From NCBI GenBank assembly GCA_004022145.1, contig RCNU01000014.1: a stretch of DNA of 64,000 nt; one strand, 5' to 3'. A program made the position numbers and the translations under genes. This DNA comes from Paecilomyces variotii (Eukaryota). A model generated the notes under the pieces. It was not told the origin of the DNA, did no database searches, and saw only the letters and a program-made list of their open reading frames with translations. Below are positions 2,657 through 28,861 of the stretch, piece by piece; the stretch's first letter is position 1; each line of letters opens with the position of its first letter.

Positions 2657-4810
2657 ATGTTTCGAGCCCGGCAGGTGACTTTGGCGGCCAACGCCCAGGC
2701 GACCACTGCTCACCATCCACGGACTCTCGTTTCCAGACCCCTGGATCACGTCCTGAGGAAACAAATTATTAGAGGAACCGCCTCTGCTGCGACACATTCA
2801 ATGTATTTTACATATCTCTATTGCTGTTTCGTGCTTTTGCTTATCTGTGTACAATTACAGACCAACCAACGTGGCAAACGCGCACACCACAGATGTCGCT
2901 GCTCCGAGTCATCGTGTGCTGCCGCCGGCGGTTGATGAATCGTATGAGAGATTCCTCCCTGTACCACAGTTCGTGATCGCTAATGTTTGATATAACCCAA
3001 CAGGTTCATCGGCATGACGGGAGGCCAGATTTTCCATGAGATGATGCGTAGACATAACGTGAAACACATCTTTGGGTACCCAGGCGGCACCATTCTCCCA
3101 GTCTTTGACGCTATCTACAATTCCAAATACTTCGAATTTATTCTCCCCAAGCATGAGCAGGGCGCAGGGCACATGGCGGAGGGATATGCGAGAGCCTCGG
3201 GCAAGCCAGGTGTTGTCCTCGTCACATCTGGACCTGGTGCCACGAACGTCATCACGCCTATACAAAATGCTCTCTGCGACGGAACCCCTCTGATTGTTTT
3301 CTGCGGCCAAGTGGCCACTTCGGCCATCGGCAGCGATGCGTTCCAAGAAGCTGACGTATTGGGAATCTCCCGCGCATGTACTAAGTGGAATGTCATGGTC
3401 AGACATACATCTGAGTTACCACAGAGGCTGAATGAAGCCTTTGAGATCGCCACGAGCGGAAGACCGGGTCCCGTCCTTGTGGATTTGCCCAAGGATGTCA
3501 CAGCTAGTGTACTCCGACAGGCGATCCCAACTACTTCCGCCTTGCCCAGTCTACCGTTGGCTGAGATGCAGCAAGCCGTCCCGATAAAGACCATTGCTCG
3601 TGTGGCAGATCTGATCAATGGGGCCAAGAGGCCAGTCATCTATGCCGGTCATGGTGTCTTGAGCTCCAAGGATGGGCCTAGACTGCTCAAAGAACTCGCG
3701 GACAAGGCATCGATACCCGTCACCACCACATTGCAAGGACTCGGCGCCTTCGATGAGCTCGATGAGAAAGCTCTGCATATGTTGGGAATGCACGGTGCAG
3801 CTTATGCCAACATGTCAATGCAAGAAGCTGATCTCATCATTGCCCTCGGCGCAAGATTCGATGATCGCGTGACTTTGAACATCCAGAAGTTCGCGCCTGC
3901 TGCGAAGAGGGCTGAGACTGAAGGCCGTGGTGGTATAGTGCATTTTGAAATTCTACCAAAGAACATCAACAAGGTTGTCCAAGCTACGGAGGCTGTGGTT
4001 GGTGATATCTCAAAAAATGTTACCCATCTCCTGCCTCTTGTAAAGAAGACCACCATGGCAGATCGTTACGAGTGGTTCGAGAAGATTAAAGAATGGAAGG
4101 CACGGTGGCCTCTCAATCTATACGAATCTTCTGAGGAACGGTCACACTTGATCAAGCCCCAATATATTATAGAAGAGCTCAGCAACCTCACCGCCGATCG
4201 CAAACACGAGACCATCATCACCACTGGCGTTGGCCAGCACCAAATGTGGACGGCGCAGCACTTCCGATGGCGCTACCCATATACTATGATTACATCAGGT
4301 GGACTGGGTACTATGGGCTATGGTCTTCCTGCCGCAATTGGAGCTAAGGTGGCTCGGCCAGAGGCCCTGGTTATTGACATTGATGGAGATGCATCCTTCG
4401 GGATGACTCTCACTGAGATGTCCACTGCTGCTCAATTCAATATTGGCGTGAAGGTCATTGTTCTGAATAACGAGGAACAAGGTATGGTTACACAATGGCA
4501 GAACCTCTTCTACGAAGACCGCTATGCACACTCCCACCAGCGTAATCCTGATTTTATGGCATTCGCTAGAGCAATGCGTGTTCATCACCGCCGCATCAGC
4601 AAGCCAGAGGAGGTCACCGACGCCCTGACATGGCTCATAAATACTGACGGACCAAGCCTGCTGGAGGTTATCACCGACAGAAAGGTTCCAGTTCTTCCCA
4701 TGGTGCCTGCTGGGTCGGGTCTCCATGAGTTTATTGTGTTTGATGCCGAACAGGACAAGCGGAGACGAGACCTAATGCGTCAAAGAACTGCTGGATCTCA
4801 TGGAGAGTAG
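2657..4810 (+). CDS. ILV2: Acetolactate synthase (AHAS) catalytic subunit with mitochondrial presequence, ILV2-like, possibly an extra copy
   Basis: Exons 2657-2802, 2861-2941 and 3004-4810 join in frame (…VDES|FIGMTGGQIF). Motifs: HEQGAGHMAEGYARASG, TSGPGATN, RFDDRV, ThDP motif GDASF…NNEEQGMVTQWQ. The N-terminus is Arg/Ala-rich and acid-poor. Confidence 0.95.
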
Positions 4811-18154: not shown

Positions 18155-19864
18155 TTACGCCACAGCAGCAACCTTGATTGGATGCGCCTCGGTATTGAAG
18201 ACCCATTCATTTTTGCCGTCGGCGTTGACTTGCCATTCGTCCTCTAATCATACGAGTCAGTTAAAGAATCTATGCTGAATGGTTTGAAGTGCATCTTACC
18301 GCCAGCCTGAATCAAGTAAGAGTATTTCATGACCTCAGCAAACAGGAAACTTTCCTGGTTGTCGTCCTTTGAGCCGCCCCCAACGGCATTGACATTTGTA
18401 ATGCCTGAGAAACCGGAATTGGCGCGGCATGTCGCGTTGATGTGGACAAATGCATCCCACGCCCAGTCACGGTACTACTCGCCTCAGTTCATGTAGAGAA
18501 CATATGGTGAGAAGGTCAACTTACTTTGTGATCGCCTGTAATGCGATAAGCGTAGTAGTAGCTTTCAATAACTTCAGGTCTGAGAATGTAGGCCCCGCTC
18601 TCAATGTAGAAGCCTGCCCTTTCATAGAACTGTTGCTGGTCCGCGGGGACAGAGTTCGCATCCCAGCCAAACTGCTCGGGGCCAATCCTTGTAGCTGTCT
18701 CGATATATGTATCGTGACATCCATTAACAAGTTCCAGGCCAAAATCAATGAAGTCTGGGATTCCCAGGACGTCACCTCCCAGCAGGAAGTTGCCGCCATC
18801 GAAACACGTGAGATGTTGAGAGTTCAGACCCAAGGTGCCGTTGCTGTAGGTCGCTACGAATGTGAGATCTGGACGGGAAGAGGGCGACGATTTCAGATGC
18901 TGCATGGTGGACTGAGCCGCAGCAACCCATCGGTCCTTGTATGTCGAGAACCTGTTTGGATCATAGACGTACATTTTGATCAGATACTCGTAGAACGAGT
19001 CATCGCCGCCGCCCCAGCTGACATCGCCGTCAGCGAAGAGCCCCGTGTCGATGTTGACGTTGCTACCGACCAACCCGGGGAAGGGCTCTGCTGATGGAGG
19101 CTCTGGATTCAGGAGGTATGATTCTCCTTTCTGGCTGAGCTCCGCATATTGGTGGTCGCCAGTCAAGTCCGAGAGATGTGTCCACTCCAGCACGAGACTG
19201 CCGATGGTCGCAAGACCATTAGTGGTCTCGCCATCGTTTCCCTTGGAAGTAATGTTGATATTATTATAGGGAATTCCGGTAGGGCTGTCGAACGCAAACT
19301 TCAAGACATCCGCCAGGTTTTTCGATTGGGTCAGAAGAGCCTCTACAGCATCAGGATTGGTCGCCAGATCGGATAGCGGTCCCTTGAGAAGGTCATATCC
19401 AGACAGCATGCCAGCCAGGTATCTAATCGTGGTTTCGAAGAGGCTAACCTCTTGCGACGTCGTCGAGTAGTCAATGGTCGGCACATAGTTCAGAATATCG
19501 TCAACTACATCGGGAAGACGCATCACCAGCGCCGTGGAGAGTGCATCAATTGCAGATGCGCCCCACCCGTTTCTGAACTTGGTTACATTCTGTTTCAATG
19601 GTCTGGTCTGGCTTCTGATGGGACATACCTCGAGTCGCCATAGCCGTTCGTCACCGGATGAAGTTCGTCATGAGGGAAGGCATATCTATAATATCCGTTC
19701 CATGCGAACTGAAAGGCCTCCCTTACTGCTTCAGCCCTCTGGCTAGCTTGAGCATCTTGGCGACGTTGAACCTGTCCCTCCTGCTGCGCATAATAAGGGT
19801 GCGCAACAGCTGTGCCCAACAGGGACAAGCCCGTCAGAGAAAACGACAGACTGGAAATACGCAT
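18155..19864 (-). CDS. Secreted class I alpha-1,2-mannosidase (GH47, MsdS-like)
   Basis: Signal peptide, [46 protein letters not shown]. Four exons. Confidence 0.93.
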
Positions 19865-21537
19865 CCTGAACGAATGACCGGGCACCGGAAGTAACAATGC
19901 GCCGCCTGAAAGAGAGGAAGGTGATCCCGAGAGGGATCAGCCGGCTATATAAATGGGACGCGACGCGATCTAGCAGAGGAATGATGGAGTAATGCTAGAA
20001 CGCGTGACGACCGAGCCCATACTTAGTATCACACCGCATACTGCGGAAGATTGCAAGTTTGCAACCCTGCGCCTTCCTATCAATGGGCAGGAAGTTTAGT
20101 GCCACTTGGAATATTGTGCGGGGACATCGTAGTAGTACTGCGTAGTGTCTCTCGACTTCTCTCTCCATCTCTGGCCGAAAACTTAGTGCTTGTAGTGGCT
20201 GAATGTCCATTCTAGAACTGGAACAGCGTGGAAGTGATGGGTCCATGGGGTTGCAATCCCGCGAGGGGCTCAGGAACAGACTTAACTGAGAGTCTGAGAT
20301 CCCCAAGTCTGGGGAAGGACGATGCGCGGCACCTAGGCGACCATCCAAGTAAATCGCCGCTCAAAAAGCTTGACATTATTTTGTGTTTCATTCTGTTGGC
20401 TTCAGCTTCTGACGGAGATCTCCATGCGAACAAACACTGCCAGTTGAAGTCCTTACTGCTCCTTATCCTGGCAAGGATAGCCAGGGGCCGACAGAAGAAT
20501 GCATTGTTGTCCAGGGCATTCCCGGCAGCCCATGCCAGCCTTAGTTTTGTCTATTAAAGTGTAAGCTGGCTTAGTTTCCCCTAGCAAGGACAAGGTGCTG
20601 GAGAACTCCACGAATGGACGCAAAAGGTGTCGCGCTAAGTTCTGGAGTGATCTGCAAGGTTCCGCTCGCAACAATCAGAGCTCTCGCACGGTCTTTGATT
20701 TGGAATCCCTCGATGAAGCACTAACAAGTCGATCGCGTGGGTAAGACCAAGATATAGCTGGCTTGGAAGCCAAGTTTGGAGGTCACGCAGACAAACACCG
20801 TGGACTACTCCGTATATTCCGTCCATGGCGATGCGATGTGATGTGTTGTTGCCTTTGCGAGTTCTTCAGAGAGACACGAACGGTGCGGGGAGCATTTCAC
20901 ACCCTATCGAGCACGGTGCTCTGTGCAGTCCTTGTGACTTCATTCTCTGCATACCCACTTAACTGTCGTGCGACTTTTTAGAAGGCTTATTGCAGGGCTC
21001 TGGACCTCCTGATGCCTGTCATAGGATTTATCGAGGCAGATGAGCAGGTCGAAAATTCCTCGTGATACTGAGACACAAATCTTGCGCGATAAATGCTCCC
21101 AGGCTCGTGCAATTAGTTAGGCCATCCGCGCAACTGAATGTATTCCAACGCGCGACACAAAGTCTTCAGTTTGGATCATATTTCATAAACTGAACGAACT
21201 GATTAATATTGTCCAGGCAGTCGCGTCCCAAATGATATCCCCGTACTTTAAATCGAATGATATTCAGACGTCACGCCTATCTTCCGACCACAAGAGATTC
21301 AATTTCGAATCTGTTACGGGTGTAACAAGGCCAGCTCTATTAACGATATATAGCATGCGACTGAGAGAGGTACGTCACGTCATTTATGCGTGTTTTCCAA
21401 GCAGACAAAAGAAAAATAACCCTACGGATCCTGGAGTGAATACAGCTGCGATAGTAGAAGCGTAGAATGCAAGACTGTCCATTCTGAGAATATGTGGAAA
21501 GCCAGCACATGCTGATGGCACTATGGGGTTGGCGCTT

Positions 21538-23778
21538 TCAATTAATAAAGGTCATTGGGAACACGCCGTCCGCTAAATTAGAATCAAGTGACCAAGGCCA
21601 GTCTTCCAGTAGCTCCGGTGGTAATTGAAACTGGGATAGTTGGTCGTCAAACCCAGTTGGGGCTGCAGCTGTTGACTCAATGTTGTTTTGGTGATTTACT
21701 GACAAGTCAAAACGGCCTTGGATGTCGTCCACCTCAGAGATAGGTATTTGCTGTAGACCAGGAAGGAAGTTGGAACATCCCTGGGTGCGCATGTACTCGT
21801 CAATTCGACCTACCTGCGCCTTCAGACGTTCGCTGGTACCGGTAGAGCGGCGTAGCCCTGATTCCAACCGATGGAGAAGCTCGGCCATCTCCAATCTAAT
21901 CGACAGTCAACCTCTCTGTTTGAATGCATGCTCGTAGTTGACCTGCATAACGTGACTTACAGAAGCGCGCGGACCCGTTGATAGGATGACCCTGACAGCC
22001 TTCCTTCCATAACCGATCCGAGCATATAGCCAATGCCGCCCAAGTGATGTAGCTTCATTAATCAGCCGTCAGATCCTAAGAAAGCCGAAGGGACAAAGAA
22101 GTTCCAGGACATCTAGCATACCAACGGGGAACTGATGGCTTTCAGATATTCAACCGGCACTTTGGAAAACACGCTTAGCACTTGACCTGCGACGTCACAT
22201 TTTTCATCCACGCCTTGTTCTTCGTTTGAGGAAATGACCATGCGCAGAAGCTGAAGTGTAGCCTGTATGTTGGCCGACTGGAAGCCGACAATATCGTAAG
22301 TTGGATCGCCAGTAACTGGCCGGATTTCTCGAAACTGAGAAGGCAGTTCAGAGTACATTGCTAGCACCTGCTTCATTACCGATGATCCCGCCTTCTGAGT
22401 TGGGAAGAATAAAGACCAGAAATCCGCCGTCCCGTTGTTTGGGGGCGAGCGTCGTCGCTGGCAATCAACAGCATGTTCGAGAATTCTATAGAGGTCGGTG
22501 GTGAAGTTCCAACCCAGCATCCAATTAGCCAGCTTCTCATTTCCACCATGAACATCACCATGGCTCACAGCCGTTGGCGAAATAGCGTGACTATTGTCGG
22601 AGAAAGAGTCGTCGTCCAGCTCACCAGGGTAACGTACATTCGACTGGGCTTCTCGGTAGCGTATAACTCCACCCCACACAATGGATGAATATACATCTAA
22701 AGTATACATGGACCAGAACTAAAGCAATCGTTAGACATTTCGATAGATACTGTGAAAGCCGATAACGAATAGAATATGAGATCAACGTACCATTCTCCGC
22801 CGAACCTCAACAATCTTATGGTTTAAGTCTCTGGGCCATAGCCTCTCATCGTACAGCCCTTCCATTCCACTTAAAGTATGGTAGATTCCAGAATACTGTT
22901 GCATGGAGTGAATCTGACCATTCTGGATGCTGGCAATACTAAGAATGGCGCATGCTCTCATGTATTCCGTTCCTTTAGCGGCTGCCAGATCTCGAGGAAT
23001 AGATTCCTTTGCCGCTGCCAAAAAGACTTCGGAAGGAGGATTTGCCAGCTGGGAGAGGTTCCAGCGGTTCGAATATAAGGCTCCATCGCGAGCCCGCGCA
23101 GACGCCAGAGCACACATGGCCATTGTAGAAGCGAATAACCCCTGGTCCTGAAGGTGCTCGCTGTTCTCGAGTTGCTTCAGGAACGAGGATCGATGAAATA
23201 AAGGAAATCTATGAGTGAGAAGGGCGTTTCAATCAGTTTCGAGTTTCCCTAGCATTTGTTTGGGAGACAAATACATGGGATATACGATCTCGAAATAGAC
23301 CTGGGCGAGATCCATAATGGTGCTCTGACAAGCAATAGCAAATGCTTTCCAAGAATTCGGTAGAATGCCATCATTACCACTTGTGACGGCTACAGTACAT
23401 GCGGGATTCAACATATCCCATGACGGGTCAGCTAAATGAGATCGAAAGAGAGAGTCTTGACGAGCTGGACGAGAGGAAGATGATCCAGCGCCATCACCCG
23501 AGGCGGCGGGTAGTATGGGCTGGCTACCCGCAGGACTGGCATCTTTTCGGGCGCCTCGTCGCTTGGTAGGACGATCATATGTGCATCGTACACCGAAGTC
23601 CTCGCAGTTCTGACAGGGAGCGAGAGGGCCGTTGTTCTTATTGCATTTGATGCTACGTCGATTGCAGAAGTCACCTGTAGAATTGTTAGGGCAACTGCAG
23701 TGTCGATCTCTCCAGGAAGTAAGTATGTAACGAACAGGCTTTCGAAGCACGCTGAAGTTTTCGCGAACGCTGCGACAT
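21538..23778 (-). CDS. Zn(II)2Cys6 transcription factor with fungal-specific TF domain
   Basis: Spliced N-terminus MSQRSRKLQRASKAC|DFCNRRSIKC…PCQNCEDFGVRC supplies all six Cys. Middle homology region (YFEIVYP, EVRRRM…WSMYTLDVYSS) and an acidic C-terminal tail. Several introns. Confidence 0.9.
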
Positions 23779-24898
23779 CGTATGTTCCTACAAAGCGGAC
23801 TGGATGAAACGAAATATCGAAACTGACTCCTTGCTGCAAAAGTCACATGGCATTCACAGCCTGCTTGACTTGCTGAAGCAAGCCTGCAAAGATGGTAAAA
23901 TATGCTTGAACAGTTTGCCTGGAAAGTGAAGGAAGCAGTTAAAACAGTTAAAAGCTTGCTTATTGGATCTGGCAGTGTAGTTAATGTCGTCCTTCACAGA
24001 TGACTAAGCAGACTTGTGCTGGAGAGAGTACCATAGTTACGCAGGTCACTTGACTTTTCACTTAGGGGCGCGAAAACTATGGTACCTACTTAGGTACTTA
24101 CTTAGTTAATAATTTACAACTGCTTAGTAAATACTTTAGAACTGCTTAATAACTGCTAGGGAAATTCAGCGTAACTATGGTATAACTTGAAGAAATAGAA
24201 ATTACCATAGAGTCTAGACAATAATCTTCAAGTGGGTCCATCAAACTCGGAAAACTCTCGCTATCACGTGCAAATAGCTGTGGGTCTCGAGGGGTCAGAT
24301 GATCCGGGGAGATGGATTGACTCTCCACGCGACAATCATGTGACTGCCAAGGCTGTTAGTAAGCGGTTCCGCGTCTCGACGCTAAAACCGAAGCTTGGAA
24401 CCCCAAGAAACAACAGGGCCAAGACAACAGTAAAAAAATTCTTTCGGAACTTTCAATTAACTGGTTAACTAGTTAAGTTAACTTGGAAGTTAACTAACAT
24501 GTCACACCAAGCTGAATAAGCGGAATCCCGAATTGGGGTAACTAACTACAGTATACGATGATGCTTTCTTGTTGACAAGGAAGTGGACAAGCCGGCCACC
24601 TCTGATTTGCTCCAGGCCTCAAGGCTCATGCTGTGTTGATGTATCAACCAGTGGCCACAAAGGAGACTGATTCCGGATAGCGCTAACGTCATCTAGTGAT
24701 GGTTTCTTTGCACTGACATTCAGTTTTGACTATTTGACTTGGATGACATCTCATGTAAGTACTGTACATTCTGACTCCTGGAACTGATGGCGAATTTACA
24801 ACTTTTGTGAGCGCTACAGATATTTTCGTTAAATGCTTTTAATTAACAATTGTTGAGTACAAGCTAAACCGTGAATAATCATGTGCAACATCATGGTA

Positions 24899-26357
24899 TC
24901 ACCACTTATTATCAAAGACTTTACCGTTAACATAATTGACCATTTCGTTGACGGGGGAAAGATGGTCTCGTCCGGCCCCGAAAAGCATGCCTTGGCGCAT
25001 CACTTTCCGATAGTTCTTGCCGGGCGACACCTTGCCCAGAACGTATTCCTGGCGAGTCTCGACACGGGTTGGGACGGGAATGGAGCGGCCGACAATGGCC
25101 TCCATACCTTGCCAGGCGAAGGTGATGGCCTCTTTGGCTCCGGCAGGAATGCCCGCCTCGTCGAGCATAAGGATCTTCGTGGTCGGGTAGTTTTCTTGGA
25201 TATACTTTGTGATGTTGGGGTTGTACGCGCCACCTCCACACATGAAGATCTCGTCAATGTGTAGGTCTTTGGGCGCATAGCGACGGTAGTGGTCCACGAT
25301 TGCCTGAGCTGTGATGCGGGTGATACTGGCAACCACATCGTCAGGAGTGAGGCCCTTAGCCTCTGCTTTAGAGATAAATTCGAACGCCAGGGTGTCCCGG
25401 AAAACCTCACGACCAGTGGTCTTGGGCGGGTCCAGGCGGAAGTATGGGTGGTTCTGGAGGAAGTCGTCCACGAGTTCCTGGTCGACTTTTCCGCGGGCGC
25501 CCATCTCGCCATTTTTATCGTACTCTTGCTCGCCGTTGGTGTAGTGACGAACCACAGCATCAATGAACACGTTGCCTGGGCCGGTATCGAAGTCATAGCA
25601 GGCATCGATGCCGCCGTGGGAGTCGGGCGGGATGAAACATACGTTGGCGATACCGCCAATGTTTTGACAGGCACGCAGCTTCGTTGGGTGGTGCAGAACC
25701 AAAGCATCGAAGAAAGCGATGAGCGGCGCACCCTGACGGCCGGCCGCCTGGTCACTGACACGGAAGTCCGTGACCGTTGTGATGCCGGTGCGAGCGGCGA
25801 GGAATGAACCCTCGGCCATTGTGAGGGCGCTGCGCACTTCTCCAGGCTCGGGCATGGAAAGGAGCCAAATGGTCTGACCGTGAGATCCTAGGACATCGAT
25901 GGTCGAGATGTCCACGTTGTAGTCCTGGCAGAACTGCTTGACAGCGGCCGCAAATGTCTCTCCCAGAATAACGTTGACTTCCGATAGCTCCGAGGGGGAA
26001 GTCTTATTGTGAAGGATGATGTTCATAACACGCTTCTTGATTGTCTGCTCGAGAGGGATTTCTCCGTACTGAAATTAAGGTCGCGCTATGTCAGTCTGTT
26101 CGCTCAGCAGAACAAAAATAGACCTTGGTCACGACCACCCGACGTACCTTAACCAGTTCAAAATGCATGGGAGATTCGGGAGTCTCCTGTCGGAAATGGC
26201 ACAGAGCGCAATCAATTCCATCCTGCAAGTATGTGAGCCCTCATTCTGCTTCCCGCATCATCGACCTTGAGCGTTGACTTACCATTGATGTGCCACTGTT
26301 CAAGCCCAGGACCATCAGGTCCAGGGGCTGGTTGGAGAGATTACCGTTGGCGGCCAT
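24899..26357 (-). CDS. lgk: Levoglucosan kinase (AnmK/anhydro-sugar kinase family)
   Basis: [77 protein letters not shown]. As recalled, these are near-identical to Lipomyces levoglucosan kinase. Two 5' introns. Confidence 0.88.
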
Positions 26358-26511
26358 AGTGCTTAACTGTCCTTGACTAAAAGTTCGCTGAATTGCTCAC
26401 TCGCCGACGAAAGTGAGAGACTCGACAACCTTTATACCGCCACGGCCGTGTTCGGTTCCAAAAGTTACCACACACCTGGAAAGTTCTCGGACAAACGTGC
26501 TAGATTAGAAA

Positions 26512-26647
26512 TTTAGCCGCCTCCGGTATATTAATAAAAAATTTAATTACCGCAGATGAGCAAGCCTTTCGCTGAGGCAAGACGTCAAGTTCGTCAAGTT
26601 CGCCAAGTGGTTGACCTTCTAAACGGCTAAACGCTTAAACGGCTAAA
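26512..26647. promoter_or_regulatory. Three CGGCTAAA boxes in the lgk/transporter divergent promoter
   Basis: TTTAGCCG at 26512-26519, CGGCTAAA at 26624-26631 and 26640-26647. These match the CGGNTAAW/GGCTAA consensus of XlnR/AraR-type Zn2Cys6 factors. Confidence 0.6.
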
Positions 26648-26999
26648 CGCCTAACCGGCCGAACACTCCCCCGGTCCTCCACATTTTCTTCTCCACGGCA
26701 TCTCTCGACGGAGTCGACACTTTCTCTGGCGCAGACCAACGGCCTCCGCAATCATGAGGTTTGGTTAGCTCGTGGAAATCCGGATCTCCGGAGGCCTAGC
26801 ATACGCGCGCGTGCTCTATGCGTGGGTTCGGCCGGGAGTTTTTCTAAGGTGGCAAACCAGAACGTACGATCTACTAAAATATTTAAACGAATGTCAACCC
26901 CGGACTTTGCATACCGGCACTATTCTGAGCTTGGACGGTCTGTGGATGACCGTTGGGCAGTTTTCTTATCAATTTCTGTTTCTTAGCAGTTAAAGAAAC

Positions 27000-28861
27000 A
27001 TGGGCTACACAACGGTATGGAGACGCCTGTCTCCCGCTCAACTCAATGTGGCCATTCAGGCTTTCTCCCTGCTTTGCATATTCTTCGAGGGATATGACCA
27101 AGGTGTGATGGGAGGAGTCAACAGCTCGCCGAGATACGTCGTGGAGGTTGGCATTGGCAAACCTGACGGCACCGTCACCGACACTACCCATCAGGGTGGC
27201 ATTGTCAGCGTCTACTATCTCGGATGTATCTTTGGCTGCTTTGCGGGAGGTTGGCTGGCCGACCGCATTGGACGTATCAACGGTCTTTTCATTGGCTCTA
27301 TATTTGCGCTCATTGGAGGTGCTCTGCAGGCTGCCATTCAAAGCTCCGATTTCATGTTGGTCGCTAGAGTCGTGACCGGTGTTGGTACTGGAGGTAGGAA
27401 CATATTATTCGATCGAATCAAACGTGTGGATTTTGTTTTGGCTGACATGGAAATTACTAGCATTGACTGGTATCACGCCGGTGTTTGTGTCAGAGACTTC
27501 TTCGGCTGAGCATCGCGGTGGCTTCTTGGGATACGTCTTCATTGCAAACTGTAAATCTACCCTTCTTGACTCTACGAGTGTGGTAGTGGGAAATATGTGC
27601 TGATGTCTTTCAGATCTCGGTATTTCTGTGGCCTACTGGATGTCCTTCGGCCTTGCCTTTATCAACAATGGCTATTCTGATATCCGCTGGCGCTTTTTGC
27701 TTGCCTTCCAATGCATTCCTGCCCTGCTGCTGGTGATTTTCATCAAGATGCTACCGGATAGCCCACGTTTTCTTGCATCGGTTGGCCGTAACGAGGAGGC
27801 TCTGGATCTGCTCACCAGGATCCGAGCCCATAAGGCGACTCCGTTGGAGATTAATCGCGAGTACTCGGAGATTGTTGCTGCTGCTAAAGACAGCCAGCCC
27901 AGTTCTCCTCTTCAATTCGTCAAGATCTTGGTTGGCAAGGGCGGCAAACCTGGCAGCAATCTGGGCCGACGTGCTTGGCTTTGCGTGTGGCTTCAGATCA
28001 TGGCCTCCTGGACTGGTATTACGGTATGTTTCAAGGATCAAGGTCTGGGTAGGAATAGCTACTGACTTGCAACTATTCAGGCTGTCACGGCATACTCTCC
28101 TGTCCTTCTCAGTCAAGCTGGTTATAGTACGGTTACCCAAAACGGTCTTGCTGGAGGACTGAACACAATCGGTATTCTGGGTACCCTCATCAGTACGCAG
28201 ATCGTAGATCGACTTGGTAGGAGGATGTGTCTGATGCTAGGCTCCGCGGTTCTGTTCGCCGTTGAACTAGTGGTAAGTTTGCATAATCCGTATGCCATCT
28301 CCGAACGTTTGGAGGGACTAACGTAGATATTTGCAGGCGGGCGGCGTCTATGAAGGCTCCCTTCAACACCCCGAGAAGGCCGCGCAGTTTGCACCAGCTG
28401 CCGTGGCTATGCTCTTCCTCTTTAACTTGGGATACGCTGCGACTTGGGGAACGGTAGCCTTCCTTATCCCGACAGAGATCTTCCCATCGGATCTGCGGGC
28501 CCAAGGAAACGGTTTTGGCGTCACTGGATGGGCTATCGGAGTGGGTATGACCACACTCGTCAACCCCGTCATGTTTGGAAGTCTGAAAAGCCGCAGCTAC
28601 TTCCTGCTGGCTGGCTTGAACCTTCTTTGGATCCCTATTGTGTATCTGTTCTACCCGGAAACTCGCAACCGGTCATTGGAATCCATTGACCTGTTGTTCT
28701 CCACCCCAGAGCCATTCTATTGGAACATGGAGCGGGCTTATCGCATGCATATAGATGCGCTTGGAGACGGAGAGACTGGGAAGGCCACCGACGAGGGCAG
28801 CAACAAACTCGCTGCAGACCAAGAAATCACCCACCAAGAATTCTGTGAGACAGTTGTGTGA
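27000..28861 (+). CDS. MFS sugar porter
   Basis: EGYDQGVMGG, ADRIGR, ARVVTG, PDSPRFL, VDRLGRR, PTEIFP, YPETRNRSLESID. Four introns. Divergent from lgk. Confidence 0.93.

Follow-up and report, generated by a model that had tools for sequence, protein, structure and literature searches.

A conserved gene trio of Paecilomyces variotii as a probable 1,6-anhydrohexose utilisation regulon of ascomycetes

A 64,000-nucleotide stretch of the Paecilomyces variotii contig RCNU01000014.1 (assembly GCA_004022145.1), hereafter the window, carries between positions 21538 and 28861 three intact genes encoding a Zn2Cys6 transcription factor, an anhydro-sugar kinase and a sugar porter (Table 1). An earlier note on this DNA had described the three genes as adjacent, with the kinase and the porter head-to-head across about 640 bp; this arrangement holds, with start codons 642 bp apart, and now has exact coordinates and introns seen in RNA. 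When the window was spliced by coordinates, all three models had 0 internal stops and GT-AG introns only, and same-length P. variotii database proteins matched the queried exons of every gene at 98-99%. On the full-length database proteins, the Pfam domains Zn_clus and Fungal_trans, AnmK and Sugar_tr each scored above cut-off.

The trio is transcribed and spliced. RNA support came from contigs of four of the 24 listed runs, contig depths being left out of gene ranking; the predicted introns are skipped by RNA contigs in 11 of 11 cases in run X2 and in 10 of 11 in run X1, which belong to two studies. Contigs of run X6 are unspliced over the trio and resemble DNA, and run X22, having no contigs on the trio nor on the nearby HIS4 gene, was unusable as a control. 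Spliced RNA contigs from the two studies also cross the entire 642-bp divergent gap (26282-27391), for which overlapping 5' ends and read-through are both possible.

Table 1. Positions of the trio and its shared promoter in the window.
Feature	Position	Strand	Exons	Description
Zn2Cys6 transcription factor	21538..23778	-	23778-23736, 23674-23275, 23208-22791, 22718-22122, 22052-21961, 21895-21538	635 amino acids, 6 exons; candidate cluster regulator
Levoglucosan-kinase-type anhydro-sugar kinase	24899..26357	-	26357-26283, 26222-26148, 26068-24899	439 amino acids, 3 exons
Bidirectional promoter of kinase and porter	26358..26999	.		642 bp
Array of an 8-bp unit repeated five times head to tail, with consensus TAAACGGC	26620..26659	+		Candidate regulator-binding array
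Sugar porter	27000..28861	+	27000-27393, 27461-27550, 27614-28023, 28081-28272, 28337-28861	536 amino acids, 5 exons; candidate anhydrosugar importer

By every sequence test run, the kinase belongs to the levoglucosan kinase (LGK) group, whose established reaction converts levoglucosan to glucose-6-phosphate in one step. It matches the Lipomyces LGK structure over its full length (E 1.3e-225, about 76% identity, or roughly 330 of 432 columns counted by eye), and the bacterial AnmKs among solved structures more weakly (E 3.7e-51 and about 9e-39). The choice between these two types, on which the earlier note had favoured LGK, thus falls as it had supposed. The AnmK family profile PF03702 spans the protein (281 bits, cut-off 24), and the kinase is the only match of this family in the 30-Mb genome; it falls under the cut-off of all 14 matching NCBIfam AnmK models, which are prokaryote-built (best 368 against 387). 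Its Asp26, Asp211 and Glu363 align with Asp26, Asp212 and Glu362 of LGK, the catalytic pair also aligning with Asp182 and Glu326 of the Pseudomonas aeruginosa enzyme, and in its active-site segments it agrees with the characterised LGK. The metal-binding and catalytic roles of these residues are described in PMC10570956; papers are cited here by PMC number. A kinase labelled Lyophyllum shimeji, a basidiomycete (P0041), is 85% identical to the P. variotii protein and groups with Eurotiales, through either contamination or transfer.

Scavenging of 1,6-anhydro-N-acetylmuramic acid (anhydro-MurNAc) from bacterial cell walls would accord with AnmK family membership and with database names. The positions of AnmK Thr97 and Arg129, presumably the lactyl-binding residues, are retained in both LGK and the kinase; being common to both types, they were rejected as a discriminator between them. 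Fungal AnmK-like kinases have also been the subject of speculation cited in PMC10570956. Such a function is nevertheless quite improbable, given that the kinase lies below all the matching NCBIfam cut-offs and that the MurQ etherase profile TIGR00274 gave at best 24 bits over the genome (cut-off 302), in an exon-wise search that a fragmented gene could escape. The frame responsible for this match appears, by our reading, to be glucosamine-6-phosphate-synthase-like. No amino-sugar gene family is prominent among the recurring neighbours of the metagenomic loci described below, and a second, unlinked fungal kinase clade could instead be the 'anhydroMur' type.

The linkage of the three genes recurs in many fungi. 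A locus-tag survey covered the top 120 matches of each gene's search, and a metagenome scan yielded 111 loci, of which the best 80, near-duplicates included, comprised 71 with an LGK-type kinase and 9 of the second clade. Consecutive accessions for all three genes occur in Aspergillus niger (CAK44910-12, An05g02490-02510), A. similis, A. falconensis and A. fruticulosus; in A. niger the orthologues of the regulator, kinase and porter are An05g02490, An05g02500 (CAK44911) and An05g02510. Among the matches listed, nine genomes have ordered tags for kinase and porter, which are adjacent in seven, three apart on one contig in one and far apart in one, and 14 have them for porter and regulator, which lie within two tags in 12 and far apart in two. 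In the metagenomic loci, a divergent porter was found in 31 of the 37 LGK-type loci with at least 1.5 kb upstream, 29 of them at 50% identity or more. All 14 long loci contain the porter, and 12 contain all three genes. The nearest named regulators come from Penicillium, Hyaloscypha (up to 75%), Aureobasidium (79-80%) and Exophiala. The synteny across ascomycetes that the earlier note had proposed to test is found in Eurotiales and across several ascomycete classes; a further cluster look-up gave no additional named linkage outside Eurotiales. Apparent second copies of cluster genes were seen in the Penicillium genomes N7533 and N7482 (porters 005439 and 011599; regulators 004218 and 007169).

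In A. nidulans, PMC8762651 gives the order AN3498 (major facilitator superfamily, MFS), AN3499 (AnmK) and AN3500 (retropepsin). AN3501, which follows AN3500, was matched to the regulator by sequence and is its orthologue; the link of AN3498 to the porter comes from position and annotation alone. The retroelement gene AN3500 thus separates the kinase AN3499 from the regulator, to which it was fused in an old gene model. In Zymoseptoria tritici, a table of PMC7317419 shows these three gene types under consecutive tags, the likeness being by annotation and no role being given for them.

The P. variotii genome is rich in porters (84 exon-level matches), so a single adjacency could be due to chance; recurrence in many fungi speaks against this. 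A related explanation, that the genes have unrelated functions and stay together by inherited synteny, would be compatible with genomes in which members lie apart (N7541, N7454 and AbraIFM66951 tags, and Coniochaeta ligniaria, whose porter and regulator are far apart). It is, however, hardly credible, as the three genes stay together in at least four gene orders while the flanks change and a common promoter motif is conserved. Off-frame copies aside, no neighbour family beyond the trio occurs in more than six loci.

The shared promoter holds 34 CGG/CCG triplets, against a mean of 17.7 for the window and of 23.2 for shuffled sequence, and it contains the array. The 8-bp unit supplies the most enriched words in 33 promoters of the metagenomic loci, 28 of which contain it as tandem pairs. 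A matrix derived solely from the five units of the window reached its 12-bit threshold in 18 of the 25 non-redundant promoters of related loci and in 1 of the 89 other tiles of the window; among 880 tiles from the rest of the loci it did so in 36, including many cluster promoters that had not been called as such. Across the genome, a two-unit pattern has four matches, two of them in the kinase/porter promoter, and the only match of a three-unit pattern with one mismatch allowed, in all 30 Mb, is again this promoter. The remaining two-unit matches, one beside a short-chain dehydrogenase/reductase (SDR) and amidohydrolase pair (L082) and one upstream of a disulfide-isomerase-like frame (L085), have no link to the trio and were rejected as cluster members. 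Whatever the gene order, the array stays in the promoters of cluster genes. In two loci (L013 and L019), kinase and porter retain the array although a regulator gene is missing from the surrounding 10 kb or so, which may mean that the regulator is encoded at a distance.

The regulator has an N-terminal Cys6 cluster and scores 32 bits for Zn_clus (cut-off 21) and 53 bits for Fungal_trans (cut-off 23). In Gal4, a loop Lys reads CGG; 68 of 70 regulator homologues have Ser at this position, which would fit a site tolerant of CGG, CGC and TGG. One clade departs from the others in both its recognition loop and its repeat unit, as a single event. This clade-wise co-shift, the Ser loop and the way in which the array follows cluster genes favour the linked Zn2Cys6 factor as the binder, and the array is its candidate binding site. 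ESM Atlas structure matches gave generic Zn2Cys6 clusters only, the 'xylanolytic activator domain' attached to matches of the regulator is an automatic domain name, and two distant paralogues on contig C67 have no array motif nearby. In several annotations from Aspergillus section Fumigati (P0255, P0394 and P0432), kinase and regulator are given as one fused protein of about 1,000 amino acids, probably through gene-calling artefacts of adjacent genes.

Alternatively, XlnR (or AraR) could control kinase and porter for plant-biomass use, leaving the adjacent factor another job, such as secondary metabolism. Read in another phase, the repeat holds GGCTAA/GGCTGA and CGGNTAAW, which are reported as XlnR sites (PMC6323846), and AN3501 has been assigned by prediction to the A. 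nidulans inp cluster, its over-expression giving antibacterial and cytotoxic extracts; the available part of that study contains no RNA-seq (PMC12511407). Control by XlnR is improbable all the same: the two genomic matches of the two-unit pattern outside the trio lie away from xylanolytic genes, the array tracks cluster-gene promoters through reshuffling, the regulator loop and the repeat unit shift together in one clade, and the regulator travels with kinase and porter rather than with biosynthetic genes.

The third member scores above the sugar-porter cut-offs (Sugar_tr 299.8 against 22.3; TIGR00879 242.9 against 237.8), and lacks the signature of glucose-type carriers such as GLUT, STP and Hxt (Gln-Gln...Asn plus Trp). 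In helix 7, Ala292, Ser293 and Thr298 replace the Gln, Gln and Asn of STP10, and in helix 10 Phe404 replaces Trp. These replacements are nearly invariant in 123 homologues: the position of Ala292, equivalent to Gal2 Gln341, is Ala in 106, Gly in 15, Ser in 1 and a gap in 1, and that of Phe404, equivalent to Gal2 Trp455, is Phe in 122 and Leu in 1, the correspondence being taken from the spacing of residues listed in PMC9476349. In the same paper, the Gal2 mutations Q341A and W455A increased levoglucosan consumption in yeast 10.4- and 10.7-fold, respectively, the double mutant being weaker than each single one.

As a control, 43 other porter stretches of the P. variotii genome were aligned, of which 28 were readable at both segments and were scored by eye. 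Eight carry a small side chain at the first position and nine a residue other than Trp at the second; both Gln are lost in one, and both Gln plus Trp in none. Three of the 28 combine a small residue with the loss of Trp, so the substitutions are not unique, and this overlap makes the likeness to engineered Gal2 suggestive rather than diagnostic. Asp33 in helix 1 is present in 117 of the 123 homologues, the other six being gapped there, and Arg123 in helix 4 aligns with the STP10 Arg; we take these two residues to be the usual proton-coupling pair of sugar porters. A single-sequence AlphaFold model of the porter was set aside (mean predicted local distance difference test score 37.7), and the A. 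fumigatus gene numbers Afu6g14500 and Afu4g14610 showed no tie to the porter and were not used.

A six-gene form of the cluster exists in three Dothideomycete-like loci (L039, L042 and L061) and in one Exophiala-like locus (L060), spanning L039:9866-21058 and L060:6-11176. Here the kinase and the regulator are joined by three oxidoreductases, of the Gfo/Idh/MocA, SDR and GMC flavoenzyme types, and by a more distant porter, which has 34-37% identity to that of the trio and keeps both Gln. L060 has three divergent pairs with the array motif in each gap, and in L039 the motif lies upstream of the kinase, the Gfo/Idh/MocA gene, the SDR/GMC pair and the porter. The best solved relative of the GMC enzyme is a 5-hydroxymethylfurfural (HMF) oxidase (E 5e-58), the GMC gene of L019 apparently being of a different type; the Gfo/Idh/MocA proteins of L039 and L060 score 37 and 31 bits with the levoglucosan dehydrogenase (LGDH) model NF052479, whose cut-off is 650. 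The kinases carry the same active-site segments as those of the three-gene form, and the two types are interleaved in a quick kinase tree of 60 rows chosen from the 80 loci plus eight named proteins, which was not read for the order of events. Close relatives of the six-gene Gfo/Idh/MocA protein (best 36-38%) and GMC enzyme (best full-length match 32%) are absent from the P. variotii genome, the SDR lying outside this search. Our guess is that the oxidoreductases funnel epimeric anhydrosugars or furans. The second fungal kinase clade (L073-L081, 9 of the 80 loci) has 52-54% identity and different active-site segments, with a divergent porter in 0 of 6 informative loci and the regulator in 0 of 9. 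A family of ARMT1-like damage-control phosphatases recurs beside these second-clade kinases.

Taken together, the three genes probably constitute a conserved nutrient-utilisation regulon, organised like a maltose cluster, for a 1,6-anhydrohexose, which would most likely be levoglucosan (1,6-anhydro-beta-D-glucopyranose). In such a regulon, the porter would import levoglucosan, probably together with a proton, and would thereby concentrate the sugar for a low-affinity kinase. The kinase would then phosphorylate O6 while opening the 1,6-anhydro ring, giving glucose-6-phosphate in one step, and the Zn2Cys6 factor would bind the tandem array in the shared promoter and drive both genes.

Besides the retained Thr97 and Arg129 positions, the XlnR-type sites in the repeat and the three control porters, several observations weigh against this interpretation. 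The regulator is absent from 2 of the 14 long loci, and the matrix misses 7 of the 25 related promoters. Transcription of the trio was seen in two studies of unrecorded conditions, so strict induction by levoglucosan is a prediction. Both Gal2 single mutants grew better on glucose as well (PMC9476349). In the same work, A. niger CAK44911 gave 1.89 U/mg in yeast extract compared with 1.25 for the empty vector, Lipomyces LGK itself reaching only 1.67 U/mg in that assay. Finally, the Km of LGK for levoglucosan, 75 mM, is high (PMC3962213), which leaves room for another anhydrosugar as substrate.

This last point leads to the main rival, in which regulon and chemistry are the same and the natural substrate or inducer is a different 1,6-anhydro sugar (mannosan, galactosan, anhydro-N-acetylglucosamine or some biogenic anhydrosugar), levoglucosan being secondary. 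The six-gene form, in which kinase and regulator accompany a different, two-Gln porter and three oxidoreductases, suggests that more than one sugar feeds the kinase. Homologues of the regulator or porter also occur in fungi without ties to fire, including groups that we take to be lichen-forming, root-associated and rock-dwelling. This distribution implies that the module is not a fire-specialist trait, and the relevance to fire ecology advanced in the earlier note is therefore its weakest part. As a substrate assignment, however, another anhydrosugar appears rather unlikely, because the active-site segments equal those of characterised LGK, levoglucosan use in fungi is reported to proceed through LGK (PMC10066097) and no second kinase of the family was found in the genome. 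The three-gene form also encodes no additional enzyme, as would suit a product able to pass straight into glycolysis.

A wider proposal, consistent with levoglucosan as the substrate, is tentative and on balance doubtful. The trio would form the centre of a so far undescribed regulon, spread across the ascomycetes, for sugars produced by heat, with a dedicated levoglucosan/proton symporter and an anhydrosugar-sensing factor that, having Ser where Lys normally reads CGG, binds a period-8 direct repeat. In six-gene lineages, the Gfo/Idh/MocA dehydrogenase, the SDR and the HMF-oxidase-like flavoenzyme would funnel further pyrolysis products, such as mannosan, galactosan or furans, to the kinase. 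The kinase appears to be the exclusive route of fungi (PMC10066097); if the proposal were true, the six-gene form would be a second, redox-assisted fungal route beside the kinase-alone route of the literature.

The surroundings of the trio are of other kinds: a glycoside hydrolase family 47 (GH47) mannosidase gene flanks it on the left, and a trifunctional HIS4 gene and UTP11 lie on the right. An RNA contig of run X2 (19629-21895) extends from the 3' end of the regulator across a 2-kb gap into the GH47 gene. Near the start of the window, an acetolactate-synthase-like frame of 604 amino acids with no apparent introns (2996-4810), identified by eye, adjoins a broken kinase-like frame.

Clusters of the MAL type, such as the yeast MAL loci and malP-malT-malR of A. 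oryzae, have a permease and a first enzyme divergent from one promoter and an adjacent Zn2Cys6 activator. The trio likewise combines a divergent permease and enzyme, an adjacent Zn2Cys6 factor, conserved linkage and a shared upstream site as the candidate binding element; in contrast, its enzyme is an anhydro-sugar kinase instead of a glycosidase, its porter has a different sugar site and its DNA element is a period-8 direct repeat. The Lipomyces starkeyi LGK (PDB 4YH5, 4ZLU, 5TKR) has the same catalytic and metal-binding residues, and A. niger CAK44911 lies between the other two genes of this trio, while the LGK literature consulted covers the kinase alone, without a linked transporter, regulator or promoter element. 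Bacterial AnmK (PDB 3QBW, 8BRE, 3CQY) belongs to the same family, with the same ring-opening phosphorylation chemistry and conserved catalytic Asp and Glu, but its similarity is far lower and its MurQ partner was not found in the genome by the profile search. The bacterial LgdA-LgdB1-LgdB2-LgdC pathway, with ATP-binding cassette (ABC) or MFS importers (PMC10066097), also clusters importer, enzymes and regulator for levoglucosan; it is a four-step redox route as opposed to one kinase step, and the trio contains no LgdA dehydrogenase, eliminase or dehydratase. The engineered Saccharomyces Gal2 variants Q341A and W455A (PMC9476349) share the sugar-porter fold and reduced side chains at the same two positions; these are laboratory mutants of a hexose carrier, whereas the porter has both changes naturally and has additionally lost the second Gln and the following Asn.

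The earlier note had stated that no fungal levoglucosan transporter or regulator is known to be characterised, and our literature searches, to which most subscription papers and supplements were outside scope, likewise found neither these nor this cluster described. New here is the tandem 8-bp array in the shared promoter; the trio, a conserved and transcribed module, is a new example of a familiar type of fungal sugar cluster and supplies transporter and regulator candidates. These candidates can be named in two model moulds, as An05g02490-02510 in A. niger and as AN3498, AN3499 and AN3501 in A. nidulans, where two published strains already bear on the prediction: blA1, which has lost AN3498 and AN3499 through a deletion (PMC8762651), and the strain over-expressing AN3501 (PMC12511407). 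The trio also allows AN3501, currently listed as a regulator of secondary metabolism, to be read differently. Uptake is a stated bottleneck for yeast fermentation of pyrolysis sugar, to date eased by mutating a galactose carrier (PMC9476349). An importer of natural origin together with an inducible switch would be of direct use for this purpose and would complete the fungal levoglucosan pathway, so far known from its kinase alone.

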